Source: Bryobacterales bacterium
GTDB taxonomy: Bacteria > Acidobacteriota > Terriglobia > Bryobacterales > UBA6623
Direction of reading: 5' to 3'
Length of the DNA stretch: 64,000 bases
Assembly (NCBI GenBank): GCA_965116065.1
Contig: OZ220485.1
Location: 3,312,347-3,376,346 of the forward strand
The notes beneath the pieces were generated by a model. That model did no database searches. It saw only the letters and a list, made by a program, of their open reading frames with translations, and had not been told where the DNA came from. Below, piece by piece: positions 1 through 17,737 of the stretch. A program made the position numbers and the translations under genes. Numbering within the stretch: the stretch's first letter is position 1; each line of letters starts with the position of its first letter.

Positions 1-935
1 AGTGGAATCTCAGCGTGCAGCGGCAGCTCAATCAGTCGATGGCACTGACGACGGCCTATGTGGGATCATCCTCGACGAACATCCAGTTCGACTACAACAT
101 CAACGCGCCGGGAATCGGTCCGTCAAGCACCGAAGTGGAACGTCGGCTGTACTTCCCTTCCCTGAACGGGTTGACCTACCGCAGCCCGGCCGCTCACGCC
201 TCCTATCACGGACTGGAGGCAACACTGACCAAGCGGTTCTCGAAGGGCTTCACCTTCACGAGCGCCTATACATGGTCGCGTGCGATGAGCCAGACGCAGG
301 AACTGTTCGTCGCTGGCGACAACGGCGGTCCGCAGGACAAGACCTGTTTCGCGTGCGAGCGCGGTCCCTCCTCCAACGACACCAATCACCGCCTGGTGAA
401 CAGCTACATCGTGAACCTGCCGTTCGGCCGCGGCCAGAGGTTCCTGGATCGTGGAGGCATCGTGAACGCCATCTTCGGCGGCTGGCAGATGACGGGCATC
501 CTGAGCCTGCAGTCGGGCCAGTACTTCGATCTCACGCTGGCCAACGCCTTCGCGAACCTCGGCACCAACGGCGTAGGGGCGTGGCGTCCGAACGTGATCG
601 GCGATCACCGGCTGAGCAACCCGACACCGGATCTATGGCTGAATCCGGATGCCTTCGAGATGCCGGTGGACGCCAGTGGCAACCCGACATTCGGGAATCT
701 GGGGCGCAACTCACTGCAAGAAGACGGAATCTTCAACTGGGATGTCGGTCTGATGAAGAACTTCCGCGTTACCGAGCGGGTTCAGCTGCAGTTCCGATGG
801 GAAGCGTTCAACGTTACCAATCATCCGTCGTATGGAACCCCTAACACGAACCTCTCCAGCCCGGATGTCGGGAAGATCACCAGCACGTTGGGTCTGCCGC
901 GGCAGCAGCAGCTCGGATTGCGGGTGACCTTCTAG
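1..935 (+). CDS. TonB-dependent receptor, C-terminal portion (5' end outside window)
   Basis: Frame of ORF 15..935 is open to the window edge. Gly/Asn/Thr/Ser-rich beta-strand pattern, ending ...QQQLGLRVTF with a terminal aromatic residue typical of outer-membrane beta-barrels. Confidence 0.8.
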   Translation, partial: WNLSVQRQLNQSMALTTAYVGSSSTNIQFDYNINAPGIGPSSTEVERRLYFPSLNGLTYRSPAAHASYHGLEATLTKRFSKGFTFTSAYTWSRAMSQTQELFVAGDNGGPQDKTCFACERGPSSNDTNHRLVNSYIVNLPFGRGQRFLDRGGIVNAIFGGWQMTGILSLQSGQYFDLTLANAFANLGTNGVGAWRPNVIGDHRLSNPTPDLWLNPDAFEMPVDASGNPTFGNLGRNSLQEDGIFNWDVGLMKNFRVTERVQLQFRWEAFNVTNHPSYGTPNTNLSSPDVGKITSTLGLPRQQQLGLRVTF

Positions 936-1037
936 TCGCCAGCAGGACATTGCCCGCAGGAATCTGGCTCGCGCAGATCCGGTAACGCCTCGGTCTCCTG
1001 GCGAGAGGTCAGCAACTGCGGGAGGATAGGTGGTGCC

Positions 1038-2402
1038 ATGCCGATCGGCCGCCGCACATTCTTCGGATCCGTCTCAACTCTTGCAGCACCGCAGGTTGCA
1101 AGGCCGGCAGAGCCCGTACTCGAGACGGAACTGCTGCGTGCCATCGAGTCGATCCCTCTCGTCAACACACACGAGCACATCATCCCGGAAGAGGAACGGA
1201 CGTCTTCTCGGATCGACTTCTTCACTCTCGCGGGACACTACGCCATCAACGATGTGATCTCCGCCGGGCTCGCGGGAGACGATCTGGATGTCGTGCGCAA
1301 TCCGGATGCATCGCCGGAGCGCCGCTGGCGTGCATTCGAGCCATTCTGGAACTCGGCCCGCCTGACAGGCTATGGCCAAGCACTGCGCATCGCGATTCGC
1401 GACATCTACGGAGTCGATCGGATCTCGCGCACTTCTTTGCAGACAATCAACCGCGAAATCGAAGCCGCGAACCGGCCCGGCCTGTACGAGGAGATACTCA
1501 TCCGCCGCTCGAACATCGCCTACGCGGTACTGGACGACTACTGGAACGCCAAGCCCGTCCGTCCGGATCCGAGGTTCTTCGTGTGCGCCCGCAAGTTCGA
1601 CCGATTCATCGCCCCGCAGTCCGCTTCCGACATCCGGAACCTGGAACGGCTCACCGACGTTTCCATCACGGACCTCGCCGGGCTCAAGCGGGCGATGGAG
1701 ACCAGCTTCGAGCAGAGCCTCGACATCGGCATGGTCACGGTCAAGTCGACACTGGCCTACAACCGGGAAATCCACTATGCCGAAGTACCGGAACGGGATG
1801 CGGAGTCCAGCCTGGAGTCGATGCTCAAGGCGACATCCGTTCCTTCCGCTGACTTCCGATCGCGTGTCGAGCGGCCCTTCCGTCCGCTCGAAGACCACAT
1901 GTTCCATCATCTGATCGGCCTGGCGGCAGCCCACGACGTGCCGGTGCAGATCCACACTGGTCTACATGCGGGGAACGGCAACTTCATCGAGAACTCCAAA
2001 CCGACCCACCTGACGAACCTCTTCTTCCTGTTTCCGCAGGTGCGGTTCGACCTCTTTCACATGAGCTATCCCTACCAAGGGGAGGCGGCGGCGATCGCGA
2101 AGGTCTTCGCCAACGTGTACATCGACCTTTGCTGGGCCCATATCATCTCGCCCAGCGCTTCGAGACGCGCTCTTCACGAAATGCTGGATACGGTTCCCGC
2201 CAACAAGATCTTCGGCTTCGGCGGGGACTATCGGTATCCCGAACTCAGCTACGCACACGCCAAGATGGCACGGCAGAACATCGCACGGGTACTGGCCGAG
2301 AAGGTAGGCGAGGGCTCCTGCTCGGAGGAGGAGGCCCTTGAGCTCGGACGCAAGCTCCTGCACGACAATCCGGACGCACTCTTCAGAGGTAACGATGGCT
2401 AG
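1038..2402 (+). CDS. Amidohydrolase-family TIM-barrel metal hydrolase (Amidohydro_2-like), Tat-type signal
   Basis: 454-aa ORF. N-terminus MPIGRRTFFGS is twin-arginine-like. Has 'NTHEHII' metal-ligand-like motif and a C-terminal 'FGFGGDYRYPE' block, as in Amidohydro_2/uronate-isomerase-like proteins. Confidence 0.7.
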   Translation: MPIGRRTFFGSVSTLAAPQVARPAEPVLETELLRAIESIPLVNTHEHIIPEEERTSSRIDFFTLAGHYAINDVISAGLAGDDLDVVRNPDASPERRWRAFEPFWNSARLTGYGQALRIAIRDIYGVDRISRTSLQTINREIEAANRPGLYEEILIRRSNIAYAVLDDYWNAKPVRPDPRFFVCARKFDRFIAPQSASDIRNLERLTDVSITDLAGLKRAMETSFEQSLDIGMVTVKSTLAYNREIHYAEVPERDAESSLESMLKATSVPSADFRSRVERPFRPLEDHMFHHLIGLAAAHDVPVQIHTGLHAGNGNFIENSKPTHLTNLFFLFPQVRFDLFHMSYPYQGEAAAIAKVFANVYIDLCWAHIISPSASRRALHEMLDTVPANKIFGFGGDYRYPELSYAHAKMARQNIARVLAEKVGEGSCSEEEALELGRKLLHDNPDALFRGNDG

Positions 2403-3861
2403 AGTCTCATCCGAAATGAACAGGAACGCCCGACTGCGGGCACGGATGCGGTGGGCCCATCTCACGATCCTCCTCGTCCTCTCGGCTACCGTCACTTTCG
2501 CCCAGAAGCCGAACTTCGTCGTGATATTCGCTGACGATCTCGGATACGGCGATCTGGGCGTGTACGGGTCCGAGACGATCCGGACTCCCAATCTGGACCG
2601 CATGGCGGCAGAAGGCATGCGTTTCACCGACTTTTATGCATCGGCGCCTTTCTGCAGTCCGTCAAGGGCTTCCCTGCTGACGGGTCGGTACCCGGTCCGC
2701 GCGGGAGTGCCATACGTGCTGTTCCCGACCGAACAGACCGGCCTGGCACAGGCGGAGATCACGATCGCCGAAATTCTGTCCGACGCGGGATACGCCACCG
2801 CGGCAATCGGCAAGTGGCACCTTGGCTGGCCCAGGCCGTTCCGCGCCCAGCGCCATGGATTCGACTTCTTCTACGGTCTGCCGTACTCCAACGACATGCT
2901 CAAGTGGAAGGCCACCGAGATCCTGCGTGCGCAGCACGCCTTCTGGGAGCTACCGCTGCTGAACGACGATGAAACCGTGGAGGCTCCGGTCAACCAGCAC
3001 ACCCTCACCAAGCGGTATACGGAGAGGGCTGTCCGGTTCATCAAGGAGAACCGGAACCGGCCGTTCTTCCTGTATTTCCCGCACACCTTCCCGCACAATC
3101 CTCAGTACGCATCGGAAGACTTCGAGGGACATTCTCCCCACGGACTGTACGCCGACACGGTGGAGGAACTGGACTGGAGCGTGGGAGAGATACTGCGCAC
3201 ACTCCGGGAACTCGACCTGGACGAGAAGACCCTGGTCGTCTTCACATCGGACAACGGACCGACCAGAGGCGGAGGCGGACGCTGGGGACACCGCAGTTCG
3301 GGTGGAAGCGCCGGCGGGCTGCGTGCCAACAAGGGGACCACGTTCGAGGGCGGGATGCGAGAACCGGGCAACTTCCGGTGGCCCGGCAAGATCACCGCCG
3401 GAACCGTATCGAGCCAGTTGGCCTCGATCCTCGACCTGCTGCCGACTCTGGCCGAACTGGCGGGTGTCGATGCTCCCGACGATCGGGTGATCGACGGACG
3501 CTCGATCGCGGACCTGTTGCTGGGAACCAAGGACTCACTCGCCGAGGAACCGTTCTTCTACTACTTCGGAACGCAACTGCAGGCGATCAGGCTGGGGCGC
3601 TGGAAGCTCTTCCTCGCCCACGCCGAACCTCCCGAGATGTCGGCATCGCTGTGGTACCTGCAGAATCCCCAGCTCTTCGAACGCCACCACAGAGTGCTCG
3701 ACGCACCACAACTGTATGACCTGCACGCTGATCGCGCAGAGTCTCGCAACGTCGCAGCGCAGCACCCGGAGATCGTCGAACGGCTGGATGGGATTGCCCG
3801 ACGCTTCGATGAAGAGATGCAGCAAGACAAGCGCCAACCTGTATATCTGGACGGACAGTGA
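2395..3861 (+). CDS. Sulfatase (formylglycine-dependent arylsulfatase family)
   Basis: ORF 2338..3861. Start taken at ATG 2395 (GAGG just upstream, overlaps the upstream stop); ATG 2416 is an alternative. Signal peptide, then PNFVVIFADDLGYGDLG and active-site motif FCSPSRASLLTGRY. Confidence 0.9.
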   Translation: MARVSSEMNRNARLRARMRWAHLTILLVLSATVTFAQKPNFVVIFADDLGYGDLGVYGSETIRTPNLDRMAAEGMRFTDFYASAPFCSPSRASLLTGRYPVRAGVPYVLFPTEQTGLAQAEITIAEILSDAGYATAAIGKWHLGWPRPFRAQRHGFDFFYGLPYSNDMLKWKATEILRAQHAFWELPLLNDDETVEAPVNQHTLTKRYTERAVRFIKENRNRPFFLYFPHTFPHNPQYASEDFEGHSPHGLYADTVEELDWSVGEILRTLRELDLDEKTLVVFTSDNGPTRGGGGRWGHRSSGGSAGGLRANKGTTFEGGMREPGNFRWPGKITAGTVSSQLASILDLLPTLAELAGVDAPDDRVIDGRSIADLLLGTKDSLAEEPFFYYFGTQLQAIRLGRWKLFLAHAEPPEMSASLWYLQNPQLFERHHRVLDAPQLYDLHADRAESRNVAAQHPEIVERLDGIARRFDEEMQQDKRQPVYLDGQ

Positions 3862-4015
3862 GCAACCTGAACATGCGGTGCCACACTGCAGCAAGTGAAG
3901 CAGCAGAGGCAGCCACCGGGCCCAGAAGCGGAGGAGCGACCATCATCGACAGGATGAGTGTGACCCGTACGGGCTCGATTGATTATCGGCAAGTCGTGGC
4001 CGAGAGGGTCTTCTG

Positions 4016-4540
4016 GTGACCACCAACAAGAAGATAGTGATCATCGCCGGCCCCAACGGAGCAGGAAAAACGACATTCGCGACCGAGTATCTGCCCAATG
4101 AGGCGGACTGCCCGACCTTTGTCAACGCTGATTTGATCGCTTCTGGGCTGAGTCCGTTTCGTCCGTCTTCCGTCGCGATCCGAGCTGGTCGACTGATGAT
4201 CGAGATGCTGCGCGGATTCGCAGCGAAAGGCGAGAGTTTCGCCTTCGAGACGACACTGAGCGGCCGCAGCCATGCCCGCCTGATTCCGCTGTGGAGGAAA
4301 CAGGGCTATCATGTGATACTGTACTATCTGAGGTTGCCGACGCCGGAAACTGCGGTTGCCCGCGTGTGGCAGCGAGTGTCGGAGGGAGGCCACGACGTGC
4401 CTGAGGAGATCATTCGTCGCCGGTTCGAAGCCGGATGGCACAACTTCGAACGGATATATCGCGAGATGGTCGACGAATGGGCGGTTTACGACAACTCAGG
4501 GTCGGTCCCGATTCGGCTGACGGAGGGAAGAAAACTATGA
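4016..4540 (+). CDS. Zeta-toxin-like P-loop kinase/ATPase (COG4185-type)
   Basis: 174-aa ORF with GTG start. Walker A 'IIAGPNGAGKTTF', 'FAFETTLSG' and 'SEGGHDVPEEIIRRRF' blocks are typical of zeta-toxin-family/predicted ABC-type ATPases. Confidence 0.8.
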   Translation: MTTNKKIVIIAGPNGAGKTTFATEYLPNEADCPTFVNADLIASGLSPFRPSSVAIRAGRLMIEMLRGFAAKGESFAFETTLSGRSHARLIPLWRKQGYHVILYYLRLPTPETAVARVWQRVSEGGHDVPEEIIRRRFEAGWHNFERIYREMVDEWAVYDNSGSVPIRLTEGRKL

Positions 4541-4755
4541 AACCGGTCGATCTCAAGAACGAAGGATCAAGTACGCCATCCCACGACCCGGGTTTCGTTG
4601 GGGCGACAGCGGCGATGCGAAGGGCCGCCCTGCGGGCGCGCCGTCGTGCGGCGAACAACGGCACCCCGATCGCGGTATTCATGGACGGCAAGGTCGTCTG
4701 GCTGCAGCCTGATGACGAAGTGTTCTCCCAAGGCCATCAAGATCCGGAAGCCTGA
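4537..4755 (+). CDS. Small partner protein of the zeta-like gene (putative antitoxin-like, 72 aa)
   Basis: ATG 4537 overlaps the zeta-like stop (ATGA at 4537-4540). Sequence MKPVDLK...AMRRAALRARRRAANNGTPIAVFMDGKVVWLQPDD resembles small proteins I have seen paired with toxin genes. The function is inferred from context only. Confidence 0.45.
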   Translation: MKPVDLKNEGSSTPSHDPGFVGATAAMRRAALRARRRAANNGTPIAVFMDGKVVWLQPDDEVFSQGHQDPEA

Positions 4756-5018
4756 GTCGCACACGAGGGGACATCTGTGGCAGCGGATGTGAACCTAGCC
4801 GCCACTGCAATGCAATAGCGACGGAGAACTTGCACCCGCCACTATTCCACGGGCTGAAGCAGGATCCATTCGTCAAGTCTCGCCCCAAGACCGAACGTGG
4901 CGATGAGAATCGCTATGATGTGCGCTCTGTAGCATAGTGACAGAAGGCCCTCCGAGTCCATTTCGATAGCTCCCAGTGCCTGTTGCACTAGCAAGTGCGA
5001 CACCAGATATGGTGGTAG

Positions 5019-5240
5019 GTGTCCAAGGTGGACTATCATATTGGAAAAACTACCTTGGCACAGACCTACCACCAACTGCGGCACGACGAGCGCTGCCATA
5101 TCCACGCACGGCACAGGCAAGGAGCCTCGGCCCGCATCATCTCGGCCCAACTCCACGTGCGCCTTCCTCCCGGTCCTTGCCCCTGCGGACTGTCCCTACC
5201 GACCGGAACTCGCCCACTCCAGCCCTCAAGGGGCCTCTAG
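5019..5240 (+). pseudogene. IS30-family transposase N-terminal HTH remnant
   Basis: ORF 5019..5240 reads ...YHQLRHDERCHIHARHRQGASARIISAQL. This follows the IS30 N-terminal pattern (x-L-T-x-x-ER-x-x-I-x-x-x-x-x-x-G-x-S-x-R-x-IA-x-x-L). The expected 'RSPSTISRE..RN' continues only in another frame (APSSRSLPLRTVPTDRN in ORF 4976..5350). No DDE domain follows. Confidence 0.4.
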
Positions 5241-5383
5241 CCCCCTTGACACACCCACACCCTCTCCCCTACACTCTCGCTGAACTCTTCCTTCGCACCT
5301 TCCTCCAGCATCCCTACCTGTCGCACTTCGTTGTTCAATTGGCATGTTGAGAGTTCCTACACCACCGCCGAGGGCAAGTCTTC

Positions 5384-5914
5384 GTGTGGGCGTGGGTTCG
5401 TGGATGGGGCGGGCCCTACGACTTGGTTCTTGAACATGACACGAGAGTCGATTCAATCATATGGAGTAAGATCCGGTTGACAACCACTCAAGGTGGATCG
5501 TATGATAGAGACTATGGGGCTGGAGACACCCCCAACGAACGCCAAGACGGTGGACTTGGTGTTGATGCCGCCACTAGGGACCAGTTGGCCCGCCTCGCTC
5601 GCAACAGGAAGCGGAGGACGGTGGGTCGCAGCGGGCCCGACATTCGCTCCAGATGGTACCCGGAGGAGGTTCCCAATCCGAATGGAGTCTTTGAAGGCGA
5701 GTGCTTCACGGGTCCAACAGCGTGGGAGTTCATTGCATCGAGGCTGGATGCTGGCGAACACGTCAAGAAGGTCCGACTTCACTCACCAAAGGGCAAGTGG
5801 GGATACGAAATGAAGATTGATCTCGGACCCGGCTTGCTACTGTACGTGAAGCTGCGATTGCCGAGTTCCAAGTGCATCATCGGAAGAAGCTTCCATCTAA
5901 GCGACGAAACATGA
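5384..5914 (+). CDS. Putative MqsR-like toxin (ORF limits given; a real start is likely internal, e.g. GTG 5621, giving 97 aa)
   Basis: C-terminal half ...FTGPTAWEFIASRLDAGEHVKKVRLHSPKGKWGYEMKIDLGPGLLLYVKLRLPSSKCIIGRSFH ends with the 'YxKLxx...xxSFH/K' pattern of MqsR-type toxins. Its stop overlaps the start of a YgiT zinc-finger/HTH gene (ATGA 5911-5914), the toxin-first order of mqsRA. Confidence 0.4.
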   Translation: MWAWVRGWGGPYDLVLEHDTRVDSIIWSKIRLTTTQGGSYDRDYGAGDTPNERQDGGLGVDAATRDQLARLARNRKRRTVGRSGPDIRSRWYPEEVPNPNGVFEGECFTGPTAWEFIASRLDAGEHVKKVRLHSPKGKWGYEMKIDLGPGLLLYVKLRLPSSKCIIGRSFHLSDET

Positions 5915-6526
5915 AACAGGACAACACTTCCCTCTCTTCAGTGCATTCCACTGCCAACGACTTCGAGTGTCCAGTCTGCGATAGCAAGGCCGTCGACACG
6001 CATTGGCGTACCGAGACATTCAGTTACGGTCTCCCCGATTCGGCAGTCATGTTGCGGGTCGAACTGCCTTTGCGCCACTGTTCGACCTGCGAGTTTGAGT
6101 TCATCGACGACGAGGGAGAGCAACTCAAGCACGCGGCGGTCTGTCGGCACCTCGGAGTTTTGACCCCGGCCGAGGTGCGAGCGGCCAGGGAACGCCACAA
6201 GATGACTCGGACCGCCTTCGCCGAGGCCACGGCCCTCGGTGAAGCCACGGGAAGCCGGCGCAGTGATCCAGAACCGGGCCTACGATTTCTACCTGCGGCT
6301 AGTCCGCATGCCTGGGGTCATGTCGATTCTCCAGAGATTTTCGACCTTGAGGTCCAAGCCATCCGATGTCGTTAGGATTGGGATGGCGGACCCGCAACTC
6401 CCACATTCGGATCTCAGCGACCAGTTCCCTCACTTGGAAATTAATGCGAATGTATGCTCGGCGGAGAAGAATTTCCATCTCTGGAAGGAATCGTTCGAAC
6501 CGGCTAGCGAACTCCAATGTATGTAA
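5911..6526 (+). pseudogene. MqsA-family (YgiT-type zinc finger + HTH) antitoxin, frame-shifted near 6240
   Basis: MKQDN...FECPVCDS...HCSTCEFEF is a paired-CxxC zinc finger. It is followed by LTPAEVRAARERHKMTRTAFAEATALGEAT (HTH helices) in frame 1 (ORF 5872..6375). The rest of the HTH (EAGAVIQNRAYDFYLRLVRMPGV) lies in the +1 frame (ORF 6239..6526). Confidence 0.6.
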
Positions 6527-8406
6527 CAACGTTTTACTCCTTCAAGGGTGGCGTAGGACGGAGTATGGCGCTTGCCAATGTTGCCGTCGAGTTGGCACAA
6601 CGGGGGCGACGAGTGCTAGCCGTCGATTTCGATCTGGAAGCACCGGGGCTTGAGATGTTCGATCTCCCTCGTCCCGAGGAAGTAACGCCCGGGATCGTCG
6701 ACTTTGTCAGTGAGTACTTGATTTCAGACCAAGCTCCTGCTGTCGATAGATTCATATTCGAATCACCCGGCGTCGGAAGGAATGGTGGAGGTCTCTGGAT
6801 GATGCCGTCAGGTGCACCTGCCCAAGACTACGCAAACAATCTAGCGAGTATTAACTGGGGAGAACTCTATGAGCGACGCCACGGTTACCTTCTATTCGAA
6901 GACCTAAAAGAACAATGGAAGAACGTTGTGATGCCAGATTATGTATTCATAGACTCTCGGACCGGACACACCGATGTCGGTGGCATCTGCACGCGGCAGC
7001 TTCCCGATGCCGTCGCAATTTTTTTCTTCCCAAACACTCAAAATCTACGTGGACTGACCAAAGTCGTGAAAGATATTCGGTCGGAAAAAAAAGTGTCCAA
7101 CAACGAGGTTATTCATCTGCATTTCATCATATCGAACGTGCCAGATTTAGATGATGAGGACCAAATTCTGGAGAAGAGTATAGACTCGTTTAAAACAGAT
7201 CTAGAGTTCAAGAATCATCTCACCATTCATCGATACGACAGCCTATCGCTACTAAATCAGGCGATATTCACAAAAGATCGTCCAAGAAGTCGCCTTGCTA
7301 AGGAATACAAGGATGTCGTAACAGAGGTCGTTCGTAACAATCCACAGGATCGTGAAGGAGTACTTGATTCACTTGCAAGTCATGATTCAATGCGACAGTA
7401 TCCAACAAATCCAGAAGATTGGGTCAGGCAGCAGGACAAATTCAACAAATACTTGGAGATTGCTGAAGAGAATCTTCGAAATGATGGAGAAGTTCTATTT
7501 CAGATCGGAGTGTATCGCAATCGTCTCAATCGCTCCGTTGAAGCCTTGGAACTGTTCGATCAAGCGATCGCGAACGGGTTCCGAGAACCCGAAGTCTACC
7601 TCAGTCGTGCTAGATCGCGGCAAATCAATGGAATAAATGGCGCAAGTGAGGACGCCAAGAAGGTGATAAATACTCCCAATTCATCTCCTCATCATGTACT
7701 TCGTGCACTGTATATTCTTCACGAAATTCTTGGCGATGAGAACCTGATAGATATCGTGCAGTCAACTGATTTCTTATCAAAGGCACCAGAAACAAGAGTT
7801 TGGATCGCTCAGCAACATGGCTTGACCACAAGATCTAAAGCGGAGATCATATTGGCCATAGTTAGCCCGCTATCCGTCGAAATCGAGTTGCATGAGGCCG
7901 AAATTGCAAGACATCTTTTGGTTCTTTGCTCAATATCGTTAGGAAAATTCTCGGAGGCTATCGAAGTCATTCGGGCCGAAGAACCGGACGTAAAAGCAAT
8001 GAGTATTGAAACGGCTTTCAATTACGGAATGGCGCTCTGGGGAGAAACTGAGCAAATCGTTTGCGGACCATTTGCACGTGCAATCAGTTGCTTTATGGCG
8101 AAGGAAAGCCAGTACATGACGGCGAATAATCTGCAGTGCATGGCAATTGCTCATTGGGCGACTGGAAAGAAGAAGGAAGCACACGATCTAGCGCACAGAG
8201 CGCTCGTCAAGATTCGATCTCGCGGACGACGAAGAGAATTCAGTTGTTGGCGATATCTCGAAGTTCAAGCAGATGAATTCGAGCAGGATATGAACGAAAT
8301 TTTTGGGTTGATTGATGGCAACGAAACCATCAAACCGCGCTTCTTTTCGCCATTGCAGGGCAAGCAAGATACACGATCTGCCTTCGCACTAGAACCAATC
8401 ACTTGA
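6517..8406 (+). CDS. ParA/MinD-like ATPase with KGGVGR P-loop variant fused to a TPR-like helical-repeat domain (629 aa)
   Basis: N-terminus MYVTTFYSFKGGVGRSMALANVAVELAQRGRRVLAVDFDLEAPGL has a deviant Walker A whose second Lys is replaced by Arg. Walker-B-like DYVFIDSRTGHTD follows. The C-terminal ~330 aa are helical, with TPR-like units (EALELFDQAIANGFREPEVYLSRA; MAIAHWATGKKKEAHDLAHRAL). The gene is visibly AT-richer than its flanks. Confidence 0.75.
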   Translation: MYVTTFYSFKGGVGRSMALANVAVELAQRGRRVLAVDFDLEAPGLEMFDLPRPEEVTPGIVDFVSEYLISDQAPAVDRFIFESPGVGRNGGGLWMMPSGAPAQDYANNLASINWGELYERRHGYLLFEDLKEQWKNVVMPDYVFIDSRTGHTDVGGICTRQLPDAVAIFFFPNTQNLRGLTKVVKDIRSEKKVSNNEVIHLHFIISNVPDLDDEDQILEKSIDSFKTDLEFKNHLTIHRYDSLSLLNQAIFTKDRPRSRLAKEYKDVVTEVVRNNPQDREGVLDSLASHDSMRQYPTNPEDWVRQQDKFNKYLEIAEENLRNDGEVLFQIGVYRNRLNRSVEALELFDQAIANGFREPEVYLSRARSRQINGINGASEDAKKVINTPNSSPHHVLRALYILHEILGDENLIDIVQSTDFLSKAPETRVWIAQQHGLTTRSKAEIILAIVSPLSVEIELHEAEIARHLLVLCSISLGKFSEAIEVIRAEEPDVKAMSIETAFNYGMALWGETEQIVCGPFARAISCFMAKESQYMTANNLQCMAIAHWATGKKKEAHDLAHRALVKIRSRGRRREFSCWRYLEVQADEFEQDMNEIFGLIDGNETIKPRFFSPLQGKQDTRSAFALEPIT

Positions 8407-8602
8407 TCACCGTTTTGACTGCACAACGCAAGATCAACCGGAAAAACCGCTCTGAATCAAAGAGCATCTCGCGATCTTGGGGTACCGGAAGGTGCGAATC
8501 ATTGAGCGACTGAGCCGAATCTACCGGTGCTCTCGTGAGAAGATGCACTGATGTAGTCACTATTCAGTCCGCTCGATCCAGCATCAAGGAACCGCATACG
8601 CA

Positions 8603-10303
8603 ATGCCGCAATCCACTTCCTGCACCCGAAAGACCTACGACGCCGTGATCGTCGGCTCCGGCGCGACGGGTGGCTGGGCAGCGAAGGAGCTCACCGATGC
8701 CGGCCTTGATGTCGCCCTGATCGAGGCCGGATCACCCACGACTCCAGAACAATTCGGAGAGCATGTCCCCCCGTACGAACTGAAGTACCGCGACATGCGC
8801 CCCAACGGCGTGGCCTCACCCGAGATCGCCCGGCTGCGTCCCATGCATGCTCTCCAGTGGGCGTGTTCCGAGGTCAACTACCAGTGGTTCGCCAACGACA
8901 TCGAGAATCCGTACACCACCGCCGAGGGCAAACCCTTCGTGTGGGTACGGGTTCGTGCGCTGGGCGGGAGATCGCTGACATGGGGGCGGCAGAGCTATCG
9001 GCTCAGCGACCTGGACTTCAAGGCGGCGAGCCGAGACGGCGTCGGCATCGACTGGCCGTTCTCGTACAGGGATCTGGCTCCCTACTACGCCAAGGTCGAG
9101 CGGTTCATTGGAATCAGCGGACGCAGGGAAGGCCTGGCCCATTTCCCGGACGGCGAGTTCCTGCCGCCGATGGGCTTCACCTGCGGTGAACGGGCGCTGA
9201 AGCACGATATCGAGAGCCGCTTCGGCCGACCCGTGACGATCGGACGCTCGGCCGTGATCACTACGGACCATCAAGGTCGCGCGGCGTGCCACTTCTGTGG
9301 TCCGTGCAACCGTGGCTGCATCACGTACTCGTATTTTTCGAGCCCGTTCACCACACTGGAAGCCGCCAGGCAGACCGGACGACTGACGGTCATGACGGAT
9401 TCCGTGGTGTCCCACGTGACCACGGAGTCAGAGACAGGGCTGGCGTCCGGTATCGCATACATCGACCGGACCACCCGCACTCCCGGAGAAGTCCGCGCCA
9501 AGGTCGTCGTTCTCTGCGCATCCACACTGGAGTCCACCCGGATCCTCCTCAATTCCGCCAAGGGAGGCTTGGCGAACTCCAGCGGCACGCTGGGCCGTTA
9601 CCTGATGGACCACATGTATGGGGCAGCAGTCAGCGGCCGGATGCCCGAACTCGGCAAGGCCAGACCGTGGCACGGCCCTCCCCGCCGTCCCAACGGTATC
9701 TTCATTCCTCGCTTCCGCAACGTGACCCGTTCGCACACCAACGGCGTGATTCGCGGATACAGCTACCAAGGGAGTGCATCGCCGCGATTCGGCCTGGGAG
9801 CCCGGGGCTTCGGCAAGCACTTCAAGCAGGCGGTTCATGACGAGGCCTACTGGCGAGCCGGTCTGCACGGCTTCTGCGAGAGCCTGCCCAGCTACAACAA
9901 CCACGTCGAGATCGACCCGCATGGCGTCGACGCATGGGGCATACCGGTTCTCCGTATCCACATGGAGTGGGGTGACAACGAACGGGCACTCTTCCGGGAC
10001 TGTGTCGAGCAAGGAGCGGCCATGCTGGAGGCCGCCGGTGCCGTTGACATCGGTACATCTGCGACGCCCAAAGTGCCTGGAGACGGCATTCACGAAGTCG
10101 GCACAGCCCGCATGGGGTCGGATCCCAAGTGCTCCGTACTCAACCAGTACTGCCAGGCACACGACATCCGCAACCTCTTCGTCACGGACGGAGCAGCGTT
10201 CCCCAGTCTCGGGTCGGTCAACCCGACGCTCACGATGATGGCCAACACGGTCCGGGCATGCGAGTTCCTGGTCGAGGCCGGTCGGCGAGGGGAACTTGGA
10301 TAG
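8603..10303 (+). CDS. GMC-family FAD-dependent oxidoreductase
   Basis: YDAVIVGSGATGGWAAKEL dinucleotide-binding motif at the N-terminus. C-terminal HEVGTARMGSDPKCSVLNQYCQAHDIRNLFVTDGAAFPS is typical of the GMC_oxred_C domain. Confidence 0.9.
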   Translation: MPQSTSCTRKTYDAVIVGSGATGGWAAKELTDAGLDVALIEAGSPTTPEQFGEHVPPYELKYRDMRPNGVASPEIARLRPMHALQWACSEVNYQWFANDIENPYTTAEGKPFVWVRVRALGGRSLTWGRQSYRLSDLDFKAASRDGVGIDWPFSYRDLAPYYAKVERFIGISGRREGLAHFPDGEFLPPMGFTCGERALKHDIESRFGRPVTIGRSAVITTDHQGRAACHFCGPCNRGCITYSYFSSPFTTLEAARQTGRLTVMTDSVVSHVTTESETGLASGIAYIDRTTRTPGEVRAKVVVLCASTLESTRILLNSAKGGLANSSGTLGRYLMDHMYGAAVSGRMPELGKARPWHGPPRRPNGIFIPRFRNVTRSHTNGVIRGYSYQGSASPRFGLGARGFGKHFKQAVHDEAYWRAGLHGFCESLPSYNNHVEIDPHGVDAWGIPVLRIHMEWGDNERALFRDCVEQGAAMLEAAGAVDIGTSATPKVPGDGIHEVGTARMGSDPKCSVLNQYCQAHDIRNLFVTDGAAFPSLGSVNPTLTMMANTVRACEFLVEAGRRGELG

Positions 10304-10418: not shown

Positions 10419-11774
10419 TCAGACTCGGCTGAAAACGGACCCGCCGAGCGTCCCCGTGCTGTCGGCGAATGACTCCTTCTCGACACCCAGCGAGTGGAGG
10501 ATGCTCAGGTACATGTTGGCCATCCGCGACTCGCCATCGTGCCAGTAGCTCCCGTGCTGCAGGCCCATGCTGGCTCCTCCGGCGATCAGCGTCGGCAGGT
10601 TGGTCGGGTTGTGTGTGGTGCTGGCGCCGCTCCCGAACAGCACGATCGTGTTGTCCAGGACCGTGCTGTTGCGGTCCCTGTACTCGGACAGCCGCCCGAA
10701 GAAATACGCGACCTGCTGACTCAGGAAGTGGTCGTACTTCGCAAACTGCAGCTGGCCTTCCTTGTCGTTCGCATGCGACAGCTTGTGATGGGTGCGGTCC
10801 AGTCCCAGCTTCAGCGGGAACGTGTCACTGATTCCCATACCGTCCTCACGGTTCAGCATGAACGCGACACTGCGCGTGATGTCCGCATCGAACGCCAACG
10901 CGATCAGGTCGAACATCGTGCGGTAGAACTCCGCCGGTTCGCCTTCGGATGTTGCGTCAAGGTTCAGCTGGGAGTAGTCCTGCTTCTTGAGCGGGACATC
11001 GATCCAGCGCTCCGATGCGATGAGCCGAGACTCGACTTCGTTCAGCGAGGTCAGATACTGGTCCATTCGTGCACGGTCGGACCTGCCCAGACGCCGGTCC
11101 AGATCACGTGCACTCTCGGCGACGGCGTCCACGAGCTTGATGCGTCGACGGAGCATGTCGCGCTCGGATTCAAGCGAGGCCCGGTCGCCTCGAAAGAGAC
11201 GATCGAACACCCGGCGAGGGTTGTTCTCAGCGGGAATCGGCCGCCCCTCCAGGCTGTAGGAGATGGTTCCGGTCCTCGACAGGTAGCCGGTCCCTGCATC
11301 GATCGACAGCACGAGTGAGGGCTGCCGGCAGTGCTGCTTGGTATGCAGCGCAATCACCTGGTCCAGTCCGACGCTGTTGTAGGTGCCCGGCTTGGGATTG
11401 TGCAGCGGAGCACCGGTCAACCACATGTCGGAGCAGGTATGGGGATCGGCCTTGGGCCCGCTCGGGTGATGCAAACCACCCATGAAGCTGAGCTTCTGCC
11501 GGAACGGGCTGAGCGGCTCGGTGGAACGTCCGAAGACGAATTCCCCGCCCTCTTCGGCTCGCGGGAACCAACTCCACTCGTCCAACTCGTTCTCCGCCTT
11601 CGGCAGGGACATTCCGTTGGCCGTATACAGAGCGCAGAACCGACGCGGAATCTGCTCGGCGACCTCGGCCCCCATGGCATCGAGAACCGGCAGCGCCAGT
11701 GCCGCTCCCCCCATGCCATGCAGGAATGCTCGTCGGTTCATCGTGGTGCAACTATTCATGTGATCTTCTGCCAA
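10419..11774 (-). CDS. DUF1552 domain protein (Tat signal)
   Basis: [23 protein letters not shown]... (likely start ATG 11741), then [18 protein letters not shown] and a C-terminal ...GDSTGTL-like end, all characteristic of DUF1552. Confidence 0.85.
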
Positions 11775-14700: not shown

Positions 14701-15439
14701 AGTCCTGAATGGGGACGAGCATGCTGTTCGCCCCGAGAATCAGCTCCTCCGAAAGCGGCTCGGGATTGATCGAAGCTCCCAGTTCGACGCGGAAGTTCTG
14801 GATCGACGGCCTGGAATCCGGATCGACGATCGAGCGCCGCAGTGCTTCGCCAGCGATCTCGAGGTAAGCTTCCATCAGGAGTGGCGAAATCTCGAGCGTC
14901 TCGGAGTTGTTGACGAACCCGTCCTCCGACACTGCATCCGGCGGGAGAATGTCGGTGAGATCGTCATCGAGCCGCAACAGCGAACGCAGGGTGTTGCGGT
15001 ACTGCGAGACGGTCAGGCGGCGTACATTGCCGTTCTTGGGCGTCGGGCGGGATCGAGCAACATGCATGGCATGCTCGATCCATTCGGACACGGCGGCTCT
15101 GGCTTTGCCGAGGGGTTGCGGGAACCCCTCGGGTGGCATGGCCCCACTGTCGATCTGATGCTGAACGACCTCCCAGAGCCGGAGATGGCGCTCCTCCAGT
15201 GCTCCGTTCAACTGGTCCAGGCGGATTCCCGAGGTCGGATTGTCCGCATTGTGGCAGACGATGCAGTTCTGCGTCAGGAAGGGCCTCATGACCTCTCCGA
15301 AGGACCGCTCGAGATCCAACTCAGGCTCCCGGGCTGCCTGCGCAGGCACTGTACGGACAGCCCATGTGAGAGCGGCCGCCGAAACGACCGCCAGGATGCA
15401 CATGCTCCATGAGCGAGACAACCGTTCCGGCACATTCAT
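11792..15439 (-). CDS. DUF1587/DUF1592/DUF1595/DUF1588/DUF1585-family protein with haem-c-like CxxCH motifs and a LamG-like insert
   Basis: ORF 11792..15517; start chosen at [19 protein letters not shown] (15439). CIVCHN near the N-terminus and [12 protein letters not shown] near the C-terminus. Central [12 protein letters not shown]...[12 protein letters not shown]...LYVNG is a LamG/ConA-like lectin signature. Confidence 0.85.
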
Positions 15440-15453
15440 GGCGAATTTGGGCG

Positions 15454-15478
15454 CCGTTCCGGCCTGCGGCCGGAACGG
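15454..15478. other. Perfect 11-bp-stem GC-rich hairpin (CCGTTCCGGCC-tgc-GGCCGGAACGG)
   Basis: Read directly from the sequence. It lies between the DUF433 gene and the DUF1592-family start on the minus strand. No T-tract follows, so a terminator role is not supported. Confidence 0.4.
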
Positions 15479-15688
15479 ACCGATACAATTATGGTACCGC
15501 CGACCAGCCGTGAGCAATCGTGGTCAGGGACGAGCAACCAAGGCCATGACTCACTCTGCCAGCAGTGGGAGCGGGTCCCTTCGCGGGATCCCGGAAGATG
15601 CTTGGAGCCCGACTGCTTCCGCACCGGAGTCCGTCGACCCGAACGATGCATGGTGACGATAGGCACGGTGAAGGGACCAGTTCGCCAG

Positions 15689-15976
15689 TCAGAGAGCGGC
15701 CAGCAAATGCCAGACACGCCCGGATGTACTCGGATCAACAAACGGACACTCGCTGAGAACGGTCTCCGCGCTGTGCCCCGCCAGCGGCTTCCCCAAGACA
15801 TGCTCGAAAGTGAGGCGCATGTCGCGGATGACCGGCTTGCCGTTGAAGATATCAGCACCCACGGTGATGCGATCAGACAGGTCGGACTCAATGGTAGGTG
15901 GATCCGGATTCGTCGCTTCAGATCGGATCCGATACGCTAGCCCACCTTGCATTGAGCGCCACGATTGAGATTTCAT
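15689..15976 (-). CDS. DUF433 domain protein (antitoxin-like small HTH protein)
   Basis: ITVGADIFNGKPVIRDMRLTFEHVLGKPLAGHSAETVLSECP matches the DUF433 core pattern (GKPxIRGTRIxVxxVLxxLxxGxSxEEIL). The C-terminus looks degenerate, and no DUF5615/PIN partner was found. Confidence 0.55.
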   Translation of the reverse strand: MKSQSWRSMQGGLAYRIRSEATNPDPPTIESDLSDRITVGADIFNGKPVIRDMRLTFEHVLGKPLAGHSAETVLSECPFVDPSTSGRVWHLLAAL

Positions 15977-16185
15977 ACACTGTTGGCAGCCGATACCAGC
16001 AAGGCAGTGGAGAGAGTCTCATGCGAGAAGCGTCGGCGCACCGGCGCCAAGATCGGTAAGGCACCCCTCCAAGCGCCTGAGCGGATTCACCCGGCTGTGC
16101 GCCAACCAAATGCGAGCAAGGACCCAAGACGGATCAGCGTGATTGTCCGAGTAATGAACTGGCCCGCTCGACCAAGGACGCGACC

Positions 16186-17316
16186 ATGACTCGACGACAG
16201 ATTCTCATGATGTCGGCTTTCGCCGGCGCTATTGCTGGCGGTCGCGCATCCGCGACTGCGACCACACAGGCCAATGCGGACGGATTCTTCACACTTGCCA
16301 GACGCTCCGGTCGCTGGTGGCTGCTCACTCCCGACGGCAGCCCCTTTTTCTCACTCGGGTTGAACCACATTGACCCCGCGAGTCTTCGCTATCCGGAGAA
16401 CATGCATATCTGGAAGGACAAGTACGGTGGCAGCACAACCAGGTGGATCAAGGAGTCGGTCGTTCCCAACCTGAAGAAGTGGGGCTTCAACACTGTCGGC
16501 TGGGTACAGGAGGTCACGGTTCGCAAGTGGCGGCATTCGCGTCCCTTCACGAACGACGAGTACCGGGCGCTCGGCATGCCGTTCTGCCATTTGCTGCCAC
16601 TCACGGAATCCCATCAGTGGGAGAAACACACGCGACATTTCGACTTCAAGGCACCGGACTGGGCGGACTGGACTGATTACGTAGCCCGCTCGCACTGCTC
16701 CGAACTGGCGGACGAACCGAATCTGATCGGATATTTCTACAGCGATTGCCCGACATGGGTTCATGAACGGCCGGACAATGCATGGCGGGGACCGATCTTC
16801 GATCCCGAACGACTCCAGAGCGAGGCGGGGCGCAAGGAGCTTTTCGAGCTTGCGAGCAGCTACTACAAGACGGCCCACGACGCCATCCGGCGCTATGACC
16901 CACACCATCTCCTCTTCGGGGACCGTTACGAGGCCAACGCAGCAATTGCCACGGAAGTTGTGGAAGCCGCCGACCCGTACGTGGACATCCTGTCGTTTCA
17001 GGACTTCCGGGACCCACTCAGACACCTTGCTGAATGGCATGAGCGAACGGGAAAGCCAGTGCTGCTGGCAGATGCGGCGAAGATCCGCCCTGCTGGCGAG
17101 GACGGCTTTGTTCCGAACGACGGAGAGTGGTACGCCGAAGTGCTGGAGGGGCTGTTCCAGAACCCCGGGTGCGTCGGCTACCACCTGTGCGGGGCCTACC
17201 AGCGGAACAAGGCCCGTCGGCGGGGACTGCTCGACGAGATGGAGCGCCCAGACCAAGCGAACGTGGACCTGATCGCGGCGGCAAACCATCGCATAGCTCA
17301 ATCGGTTCCCGAATAG
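16186..17316 (+). CDS. Tat-exported hydrolase, putative glycoside-hydrolase-like TIM barrel
   Basis: MTRRQILMMSAFAGAIAGG twin-arginine signal. 'GRWWLLTPDGSPFFSLGLNHI' and 'NLIGYFYSDCP' blocks resemble secreted GH-A-clan enzymes. Family not identified. Confidence 0.5.
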   Translation: MTRRQILMMSAFAGAIAGGRASATATTQANADGFFTLARRSGRWWLLTPDGSPFFSLGLNHIDPASLRYPENMHIWKDKYGGSTTRWIKESVVPNLKKWGFNTVGWVQEVTVRKWRHSRPFTNDEYRALGMPFCHLLPLTESHQWEKHTRHFDFKAPDWADWTDYVARSHCSELADEPNLIGYFYSDCPTWVHERPDNAWRGPIFDPERLQSEAGRKELFELASSYYKTAHDAIRRYDPHHLLFGDRYEANAAIATEVVEAADPYVDILSFQDFRDPLRHLAEWHERTGKPVLLADAAKIRPAGEDGFVPNDGEWYAEVLEGLFQNPGCVGYHLCGAYQRNKARRRGLLDEMERPDQANVDLIAAANHRIAQSVPE

Positions 17317-17737
17317 GCCGTAGCGATCGACCGCGTCAAGCGTCAAGTGGGGCCATGCTACGGATTCGACGCGGTTCAAGCTCGTCAGAGCAGTGTTCGA
17401 CACAATTGGCTCCTGAGTACTTCCGAGTGCGACAGGATCGGACACGTCACTAGCGAGGCAGCCCGATCCGTGCCCTAACGAAGATAGATTTCCCGGTGTT
17501 GGTCAAAGTTCTGAAAAGAGAGGCTGTAAACTCGGCCTGACCGATCATATGCCAAGAATATCCTCCAGTCCATTGTCGACCAACTACTCTACTCCGGCTT
17601 CGACTTATCGTGGGCTATAGCCCTTCTGAGCGAAGAGAATACGATTCTGAAAATTAAGATAGTCCTTGATTCTAGTTGCCACTTCTTAATAGTGCATTTT
17701 GTGCTAAAGAATCATGATCTCGTTCGAGATGTACTCC

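Follow-up and report, generated by a model that had tools for sequence, protein, structure and literature searches.

The analysed window, a 64,000-nucleotide stretch of a Bryobacterales bacterium genome (GCA_965116065.1, contig OZ220485.1, positions 3,312,347 to 3,376,346 of the forward strand), holds a partly decayed copy of a three-gene operon, located between a sulfatase gene and a GMC gene. Gene 1 encodes a small toxin-like protein, gene 2 an MqsA-type antitoxin with an extra tail, and gene 3 a 629-residue variant ParA-like ATPase fused to TPR repeats. The features are listed in Table 1.

Table 1. Features of the three-gene cassette (positions in the window)
Position	Strand	Feature	Remarks
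5477..5506	+	Promoter-like site, TTGACA-18 nt-TATGAT	11 of 12 matches; collinear with the promoter upstream of gene 1 in homologues
5497..5506	.	10-bp near-palindrome ATCGTATGAT (consensus ATCATATGAT)	Overlaps the -10 box; candidate operator for the MqsA-like HTH
5384..5914	+	Gene 1, toxin-like small protein of a new family	Conserved part from about 5558 (GVDAAT…) to 5911; canonical start position 5521-5523 reads TGG instead of ATG
5911..6248	+	Gene 2, N-terminal part in frame A	Zn ribbon (Cys20, Cys23, Cys57, Cys60 = 5968-6090) and first half of the HTH
6248..6249	+	Site of an 11-nt deletion in gene 2	Removes the L-(G/S)-R-W codons of the HTH and shifts the frame by +1
6251..6526	+	Gene 2, remainder in the +1 frame	Rest of the HTH and C-terminal extension (about 6376-6526); F-H-L-W at 6473-6484 corresponds to the consensus F-x-L-R-x-A-A-COOH; tail 11 residues longer than in homologues
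6517..7194	+	Gene 3, N-terminal KGGVGR-variant ParA/MinD-like P-loop domain	Walker A FKGGVGRS, switch VDFDLEAP, Walker B DSRTG
7195..8406	+	Gene 3, linker and C-terminal TPR-like helical repeat domain	

The three observations made in the sequence-only reading, namely the overlap of genes 1 and 2, the continuation of the HTH in the +1 frame up to gene 3, and the AT-rich composition of the distal part, were all confirmed. The gene 1 ORF ends with GRSFHLSDET and TGA at 5912-5914, whereas ATG 5911-5913 starts the zinc-finger/HTH ORF, forming an ATGA overlap at 5911-5914. Frame A of gene 2 runs to a stop at 6375, and the +1 frame (ORF 6239..6526) continues the HTH sequence (…EAGAVIQNRAYDFYLRLV…) to TAA 6524-6526, overlapping ATG 6517 of gene 3 by 10 nt. 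A DNA alignment with four homologues showed that the frame break is the 11-nt deletion. A homopolymer sequencing error or a programmed frameshift was rejected, because four conserved codons are removed and every homologue has a single ORF. The GC content was 0.41-0.54 across about 6300-8550, against 0.58-0.66 in the flanks. GC3 was 0.42-0.53 in gene 3, 0.73 in gene 2, and 0.77-0.78 in the flanking sulfatase and GMC genes.

Gene 2 belongs to the MqsA family. Intact orthologues scored 70.2, 65.7, 59.6, 67.3, 72.1 and 64.0 bits on TIGR03830, so that 5 of 6 passed the curated cut-off of 61.8 bits, whereas the broken window product scored only 33 bits (4.2e-08) because of the deletion. The match covers only about residues 20-140 of about 190, and the conserved C-terminal extension of about 55 residues, which carries its own motifs, lies beyond the model. 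The zinc-binding pattern CPxCG…C..C is conserved across 88 sequences. In MqsA, the Zn domain binds and neutralises MqsR, and the HTH binds DNA (PMC2791442). The HTH is interrupted in the window but intact in orthologues.

The N-terminal 190-226 residues of gene 3 matched NCBIfam NF047398 AAA_KGGVGR (172.4 bits against a cut-off of 90, E 1.3e-50) and the PADLOC candidate model PDC-M28B (3.6e-35). Pfam CbiA/AAA_31 and weak TPR hits were also obtained, but no recognisable effector domain. KGGVGR[TS] is present in 87 of 88 gene 3 proteins, meaning that the P-loop lysine of canonical ParA/MinD proteins (KGGxxGK[ST]) is replaced by arginine, although the signature lysine (KGG…) is retained. This change may mean weak or absent hydrolysis, so the name ATPase is nominal. 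All equivalog models scored far below their cut-offs, and similarity to solved structures was confined to about the first 40 residues, with weak hits to ParA, MinD, Soj and ParF (E about 1e-4). The TPR domain diverges fast, with 33-50% identity to homologues, compared to 66-75% for the ATPase domain.

Gene 1 is a new family. Searches of Pfam (including PF15723 and PF14076), NCBIfam, PADLOC and PDB sequences returned no match, and neither the window protein nor any of the 61 family members tested gave a PF15723 hit at E <= 1. A first AF2 model built from 7 sequences was poor (pLDDT 60), whereas a model from 61 sequences reached pLDDT 86. Foldseek searches with the latter against PDB and BFVD found nothing at E <= 0.001, the weak hits being NTF2-like sheets and BrnT at E 0.44. 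Comparison by hhalign with a 25-sequence MqsR alignment gave only 5.8% probability over 19 aligned columns in the last hairpin. In this weak alignment, the invariant residues Y124, K126, S139, F140 and H141 correspond to the invariant MqsR residues Y81, K83, S94, F95 and K96 (R138 is also invariant; numbering follows the 146-residue construct 5474-5911). Tyr81 is essential for MqsR catalysis (PMC9636575), but no counterpart of the catalytic Lys56 was identified. Gene 1 is not demonstrably a RelE/MqsR-fold protein. The label "MqsR-like" is therefore unproven, although a toxin role is plausible, since gene 1 is the member most often broken in other genomes (7-8 of 88 loci, against none for gene 2 and 1-2 for gene 3).

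The three genes are not a chance neighbourhood. In all 88 distinct homologous loci first surveyed, plus 4 looked up later, they lie in the same order and on the same strand. This holds for all 80 genome loci, 4 IMG/VR loci with only 34-39% ATPase identity, 2 metagenome loci, 3 loci found from gene 1, 2 found from distant gene 1 relatives, and 2 plasmid loci. The hosts span Acidobacteriota, Spirochaetia, Binatia, Latescibacterota, and Alpha-, Beta- and Gammaproteobacteria; other copies lie on plasmids, one beside repA and an integrase, and one copy lies in a prophage, beside phage tail genes. At least 523 species-representative genomes matched. In most loci the gene 2 stop lies 4-5 nt before the gene 3 start. 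The flanking genes differ, and no fourth conserved gene was found: among 501 neighbouring proteins the largest cluster had 7 members and 360 were singletons. The immediate neighbours are mostly metabolic genes, with only a handful of defence or mobile genes among the 142 considered without a control set. The upstream promoter and palindrome are conserved in 77 of 87 loci, the palindrome lying within about 140 nt upstream of gene 1 with at most one mismatch; all 1.2 Mb of locus DNA holds 133 matches in total.

The sequence-only reading, which proposed a tripartite toxin-antitoxin-NTPase module with an RNase-like toxin as effector and the ATPase-TPR protein acting on the antitoxin tail, was partly supported. 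The conserved, tightly packed cassette, the MqsA-type antitoxin with its tail, and the KGGVGR ATPase-TPR protein without an effector domain agree with it, and the condition set beforehand as refuting it, that homologues are never adjacent to toxin-antitoxin genes, failed decisively. The MqsR-like assignment of gene 1 was not supported by the profile searches, and a defence function remains a hypothesis. That reading also missed that the window copy is degenerate and compositionally mosaic, hence a poor template for cloning. Intact copies exist on Rhizobium and Massilia plasmids (for example, Rhizobium gallicum pRgalR602b and the Massilia forsythiae plasmid).

We consider it somewhat more likely than not that the window carries a decaying, mosaic copy of a self-contained, horizontally mobile operon acting as a tripartite toxin-antitoxin module. 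The intact operon would comprise a sigma-70-like promoter with the palindrome over its -10 box; gene 1 (about 125 residues), a predicted alpha/beta protein whose invariant C-terminal hairpin (Y-x-K … R-S-F-H) resembles the catalytic hairpin of MqsR/RelE-type RNases; gene 2 (about 190 residues); and gene 3 (about 610 residues). In this view, gene 1 would be a growth-arresting toxin, neutralised by the Zn domain of gene 2, whose HTH would repress the operon at the palindrome. Gene 3 would bind the antitoxin extension and control its stability or activity, the role played by the SecB-like chaperone in toxin-antitoxin-chaperone (TAC) systems. A trigger, such as a phage protein bound by the variable TPR domain or a change in nucleotide state, would release the tail, upon which the antitoxin would be lost and the toxin freed; trigger-induced antitoxin loss has a precedent among TAC systems (PMC11980606). 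Synteny, spacing, composition, family matches, sequence motifs, the pattern of broken genes and the weakly supported residue correspondence with MqsR come directly from the comparisons above, whereas toxicity, neutralisation, operator binding, the contact between the tail and gene 3, nucleotide hydrolysis and phage defence are inferred from sequence and analogy. In the window the system is probably inactive, as gene 1 has lost its canonical start codon and gene 2 is truncated. We must also note that a broken antitoxin beside a seemingly full-length toxin ORF is awkward unless the toxin is silent.

TAC systems (HigBAC, MqsRAC, HicAB-SecB and CmdTAC-type defence) share with the cassette three genes in one operon, an antitoxin extension absent from two-gene relatives, and a third protein without a toxic domain, positioned to act on the antitoxin; some use MqsA-type antitoxins (PMC5105189, PMC3581621, PMC11980606). 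Here, however, the third protein is a KGGVGR variant P-loop protein with TPR repeats and not a SecB-like chaperone, and the toxin-like protein is of a different, unannotated family. With the E. coli mqsRA and DUF4258-MqsA modules, the cassette shares the toxin-first order, the CxxC…CxxC Zn ribbon, a C-terminal-type HTH, a palindrome in the promoter, and, with MqsR, the Y-x-K…S-F-(K/H) pattern, but the antitoxin is about 55 residues longer, the putative operator sequence differs, and a third gene is obligatory. The NF047398 and PDC-M28B models describe only the ATPase domain. The PDC-M28B profile (438 positions) has an extra N-terminal region and no TPR, and matches the size of the 438-residue ATPase on an Enterobacter plasmid. 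Genes 1 and 2 matched no PDC-M28 model, and no PDC-M28A-type partner was detected. Neither the databases searched nor literature searches on the KGGVGR domain, PDC-M28, MqsA-like proteins and tripartite or ParA-like ATPase-TPR defence systems, in an incomplete library that cannot exclude a prior description, returned an account of this cassette as a unit.

Other readings appear less likely. Gene 3 might be a sensor-switch of the NLR/Avs type, whose TPR domain senses a phage protein and which, after nucleotide-dependent dimerisation, strips or inactivates the antitoxin or activates gene 1 directly, the tail being a docking site and not a protected degron. This is compatible with the fast TPR divergence beside a conserved NTPase domain, the fusion of the same KGGVGR domain to a TIR domain in a Sinorhizobium plasmid protein, the PDC-M28B match, and the prophage and plasmid copies. 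Nevertheless, we regard it as unlikely, since the NTPase is of the ParA/MinD (SIMIBI) and not the STAND class, the P-loop lysine is replaced, no enrichment in defence islands was shown, and there is no functional data. Still more doubtful is a combined partition and addiction unit, in which gene 2 would bind the palindrome as a centromere-like site and stimulate a ParA-type gene 3 through its arginine-containing tail (F-x-L-R), as ParG or ParB peptides stimulate ParF or ParA, and gene 1 would be a post-segregational killer. The ParA/MinD resemblance, the palindrome and the plasmid copies suit this model. However, most copies are chromosomal, sit among metabolic genes and have no other mobile-element genes conserved nearby, the 330-residue TPR domain and the Lys-to-Arg P-loop are not features of partition ATPases, and a single palindrome over the -10 box is typical of an operator rather than a repeat-rich centromere.

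It is similarly improbable, though not excluded, that gene 1 is not a toxin and that the cassette is a regulatory module of an HTH regulator, a co-factor and an NTPase-TPR signalling protein. The absence of a significant fold or family match and the full-length gene 1 ORF beside a broken gene 2 would fit, whereas the toxin-first pairing with an MqsA-family protein (PMC11980606), the hairpin correspondence with functional MqsR residues, the preferential inactivation of gene 1 and the loss of its canonical start codon in the window speak against it. Assembly of the three genes by unrelated insertions, with the AT-rich part as a scar, is refuted as an explanation of the architecture by the synteny in every locus examined, across many phyla and with different flanks. 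The window does show a sharp GC3 step (0.73 to 0.44) inside the gene 2 tail, so that gene 3, and probably the tail, differ in codon composition from genes 1-2. The step is specific to the window (0.28, against a mean of 0.05 and sd of 0.06 in 88 loci) and is better explained by recombination between two cassette alleles. This inference rests on GC3 only, as ranking homologues per gene revealed no clear change of nearest relatives.

Tentatively, the cassette may be a previously undescribed class of tripartite toxin-antitoxin or abortive-infection system, in which the variant NTPase with its rapidly evolving TPR sensor guards the antitoxin tail and so gates a new family of RNase-like toxins, spreading horizontally across at least seven bacterial classes. 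If confirmed, it would add a third solution to the control of an antitoxin by a third protein, alongside SecB-like chaperones and the HipBST type of split system, define a new toxin family, and give a function to the KGGVGR domain. The cassette is common, carries its own conserved promoter and putative operator, and occurs in cultivable hosts, so it can be tested directly. It appears especially common in MAGs of several phyla whose names and bin labels point to sponge microbiomes, which would also make it a marker of horizontal exchange within that community.

No homologues were found in the phage record collection. Within 3500-9000 there was no Rfam family at gathering score, no credible tRNA and no direct repeats bounding the cassette. 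A repeat search of 5230-5520 reported no inverted repeat, and the 10-bp palindrome emerged only by comparison with homologues. The lower GC content of the cassette relative to its flanks was observed in 83 of 85 loci.

We first re-examined the three sequence observations underlying the sequence-only reading, namely the overlap between the first two ORFs, the continuation of the HTH in a second frame that runs into the third gene, and the AT-rich character of the distal part of the cassette, and all of them held. The stop codon of the first ORF (gene 1) overlaps the ATG of a zinc-finger/HTH ORF (gene 2). The latter stops early in frame A, but its HTH continues in the +1 frame, which ends 10 nt inside the 629-aa gene that follows (gene 3). 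GC falls to 0.41-0.54 over the AT-rich segment, against 0.58-0.66 on either side. In profile searches, the 629-aa protein matched NCBIfam NF047398, the KGGVGR-motif variant AAA ATPase (172 bits, cut-off 90), as well as Pfam CbiA/AAA_31, with weak TPR hits and a match to the PADLOC candidate PDC-M28B over the ATPase domain only. The product of gene 2 weakly matched TIGR03830, the MqsA family, at 33 bits, whereas that of gene 1 matched nothing in Pfam, NCBIfam or PADLOC. The interpretation built on these observations, a coupled MqsR-like, MqsA-like and ATPase-TPR cassette, was partly supported: the cassette is a conserved unit, but the MqsR-like label of gene 1 could not be demonstrated. Coordinates are collected in the table below.

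Features of the window, and of three homologous or related records, that are discussed in the text
Record	Coordinates	Feature	Remarks
Window	3858..4019	Small ORF	Overlaps one end of the kinase gene
Window	4016..4540	Zeta-toxin/AAA_33-like P-loop kinase gene	Pfam PF06414 at 2.6e-11
Window	about 4537..4755	Small ORF	Overlaps the other end of the kinase gene
Window	5019-5240	Short ORF	Weak HTH_38/transposase-type HTH similarity (E 0.005)
Window	5384..5914	ORF of gene 1	TGA at 5912-5914
Window	5477-5506	Promoter-like element	Conserved upstream of gene 1 in homologues
Window	5477	TTG	Only nearby in-frame start for gene 1; lies inside the -35 hexamer
Window	5497-5506	Palindrome ATCGTATGAT	Over the -10 box
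Window	5514	ATG	Out of frame with gene 1
Window	5521-5523	TGG	Aligns with the ATG of gene 1 in homologues
Window	5911 to 6375	Gene 2, frame A	ATG at 5911; stop at 6375
Window	6239..6526	Gene 2, continuation in the +1 frame	TAA at 6524-6526
Window	between 6248 and 6249	11-nt deletion in gene 2	Relative to four homologues
Window	about 6300-8550	AT-rich segment	
Window	about 6400-6520	Inferred recombination junction	Near the gene 2 tail
Window	6517	ATG of gene 3	629-aa product; gene 2 and gene 3 were compared over 5911-8406
Window	10419..11774	451-aa ORF	Minus strand
Window	10593-10685	tRNA-Ala(GGC), 93 nt, reported by ARAGORN	Inside the region of the 451-aa ORF; probably a false positive
L089 (IMG/VR contig)	172-5052 and 15369-17618	Phage minor tail (tape-measure-like) and baseplate hub genes on one side of the cassette, a ParB-like gene on the other	
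L096; L097 (plasmid loci)	L096 3489-5693; L097 2566-5896	KGGVGR ATPase domain fused to a TIR domain (Sinorhizobium chiapasense plasmid) and as a 438-aa ATPase (Enterobacter IncF plasmid)	

A search with the product of gene 1 found only six clusters, and each of the three that were looked up lay directly upstream of an intact 187-193-aa MqsA-like gene and a 593-619-aa ATPase gene, with different flanking genes. We then searched one genome per GTDB species with an alignment of ATPase-TPR homologues. At least 523 loci encode a relative, of which the best 80 were retrieved. HMMs of gene 1 and gene 2 hit every one of these 80 loci, immediately upstream, on the same strand and in the same order, and in most of them the gene 2 stop lies 4-5 nt before the ATPase start. 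The same arrangement was present in four IMG/VR contigs, whose ATPase is only 34-39% identical, in two metagenome contigs, and in two loci reached from distant relatives of gene 1. It was also present in two plasmid loci, Rhizobium gallicum pRgalR602b and a 23-kb Massilia forsythiae plasmid, where RefSeq names gene 2 a type II TA system antitoxin MqsA family protein and gene 3 an AAA family ATPase or a ParA family protein. R. phaseoli and Polymorphobacter plasmids gave full-length ATPase hits as well.

The hosts include Acidobacteriota (Bryobacterales, Vicinamibacterales, Thermoanaerobaculia), Spirochaetia, Binatia, Latescibacterota, and Alpha-, Beta- and Gammaproteobacteria. The closest 80 loci come almost entirely from MAGs and span at least seven classes. 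Many of these MAGs have names or bin labels, for example Poriferihabitans and Spongia_Bin9, that look sponge-associated, suggesting, on the names and labels alone, horizontal spread within one habitat. Further features mark the cassette as an autonomous, horizontally moving operon. No fourth conserved gene was found, as among 501 neighbouring proteins the largest similarity cluster has 7 members and 360 are singletons. The cassette has lower GC than its flanks in 83 of 85 loci, by 7 points on average. Moreover, in the IMG/VR contig L089 the cassette lies between phage tail genes and a ParB-like gene, so this copy sits in a (pro)phage.

Upstream of gene 1 the homologues share TTGACA-N17/18-TATGAT, with the 10-bp palindrome ATCATATGAT lying over the -10 box (among others in the homologous loci L001, L003, L005, L013, L014, L058 and L091). 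A copy of the palindrome with at most one mismatch lies within about 140 nt of gene 1 in 77 of 87 loci, whereas all 1.2 Mb of the retrieved DNA holds only 133 matches. Its presence across phyla suggests one shared operator. This is the expected place for autoregulation by the HTH of gene 2, given that MqsA binds its own promoter through its C-terminal HTH (PMC2791442).

Intact orthologues of gene 2 pass the curated MqsA-family cut-off in 5 of 6 cases. An alignment of 88 sequences shows the CPxCG…C..C zinc ribbon, the HTH (GLGEAxLxRWENG…DrYLRLL), and about 55 further residues with two conserved motifs, F-R-x-L and a C-terminal R..Q..F-x-L-R-x-A-A-COOH. The TIGR03830 match ends near residue 140, meaning that the extension lies outside the MqsA model. 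It is therefore a cassette-specific addition, analogous in position to the chaperone-addiction region of TAC antitoxins (PMC5105189, PMC3581621).

In gene 3, the Walker A motif reads KGGVGR[TS] in 87 of 88 proteins; the ParA/MinD signature lysine is kept, but the P-loop lysine is arginine. The switch-like VDFD[LVI]EAP and Walker B-like DSRTG motifs are conserved, whereas similarity to the solved structures of ParA, MinD, Soj and ParF is limited to the first 40 residues or so. The public annotation of the window protein (613 aa) starts at Met17, which omits the KGGVGR P-loop, while the 629-aa start matches all homologues. The ATPase half is 66-75% identical between the window and its relatives, but the TPR half only 33-50%, which is the pattern expected of a recognition domain. 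The same ATPase domain is fused to a TIR domain in a Sinorhizobium chiapasense plasmid protein. It also forms a 438-aa protein, possibly the PADLOC PDC-M28 candidate, between two hypothetical genes beside an integrase on an Enterobacter IncF plasmid. Both contexts are typical of conflict systems.

For gene 1, an exhaustive profile search found 466 representative clusters, all of 100-140 aa and all unnamed. In a 61-sequence alignment, Y124, K126, R138, S139, F140 and H141 are invariant. None of the 61 members hit MqsR, DUF4258 or any other toxin family in Pfam, and no PDB sequence matched. We conclude that gene 1 is not a demonstrable member of the MqsR family, although a RelE/MqsR-like RNase remains the best guess. 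Independent support for toxicity comes from gene decay, as gene 1 is interrupted or truncated in 7-8 of 88 loci, gene 3 in 1-2, and gene 2 in none. Split, truncated or interrupted copies of gene 1 were seen in the homologous loci L014, L017, L021, L045, L046, L058, L072, L087 and L093, where genes 2 and 3 usually stay intact. In L046 the two halves lie about 3.4 kb apart, separated by an insertion, and in L093 gene 3 is also truncated, to 278 aa.

The copy in the window is degenerate and mosaic. The 11-nt deletion in gene 2 removes L-(G/S)-R-W of the recognition helix and shifts the frame; this is not a homopolymer error, and no homologue needs a frameshift. The truncated product keeps the Zn domain, which in MqsA is sufficient to bind and neutralise the toxin (PMC2791442). 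The gene 2 tail is atypical, ending in …NFHLWKESFEPASELQCM, 11 residues longer than the consensus end F-x-L-R-x-A-A, which is why it overlaps the ATPase start. Gene 1 lacks a start codon at the canonical position, and of the nearby alternatives, one lies inside the -35 hexamer and the other is out of frame. The putative toxin is therefore probably not translated from the cassette promoter.

GC3 is 0.64 in gene 1 and 0.73 in gene 2, and it falls to 0.57 in the tail and 0.42-0.53 in gene 3, while host genes are at 0.77-0.78. The gap of 0.28 between gene 2 and gene 3 exceeds that in every one of 88 other loci (mean 0.05, sd 0.06). The next largest step, 0.24, is in the homologous locus L054, where the gene 2 ORF shows two HMM domains. 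The AT-rich shift is real, and it is best explained by recombination between two cassette alleles, with a junction in the gene 2 tail, and not by unrelated insertions. We must also note that ranking homologues gene by gene did not show a change of nearest relatives, so recombination remains an inference.

Our analysis establishes the operon structure, the family assignments of genes 2 and 3, the extension, the operator-like palindrome, the variant P-loop, the divergence pattern and the preferential loss of gene 1. The mechanism, in contrast, is inferred. In this view, gene 1 would be a toxin neutralised by the Zn domain of gene 2, gene 2 would repress the operon at the palindrome, and gene 3 would bind the extension and determine whether the antitoxin survives, until a trigger acting on the TPR domain or on the nucleotide state releases the toxin. 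The closest precedent is the TAC family, where displacement of the SecB-like chaperone from the antitoxin by a phage protein activates the toxin (PMC11980606). By sequence resemblance alone, the C-terminal …A-A ends of many tails recall C-terminal degradation tags. It is also possible that the cassette is an NLR-like sensor-switch, a partition-plus-addiction unit in which the tail stimulates the ParA-like protein, or a non-toxic regulatory module, whereas chance juxtaposition of the three genes is refuted.

Gene 1 has no model in Pfam, NCBIfam release 20 or PADLOC v2, and the cassette as a whole matches no PADLOC system. Full-text literature searches found no description of it, although the library searched was incomplete and prior description elsewhere cannot be ruled out. 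We regard the cassette as a putative tripartite toxin-antitoxin or defence module that differs from those already known in its third component and in its putative toxin family. Its interest is high for the family and lower for this particular decayed copy.

The cassette in the window shares a 4.7-kb island, between the sulfatase and GMC oxidoreductase genes, with the zeta-toxin/AAA_33-like P-loop kinase gene. With small ORFs overlapping both of its ends, the latter looks like a second TA-like pair. The short ORF directly upstream of the cassette is possibly the remnant of an IS30-like transposase.
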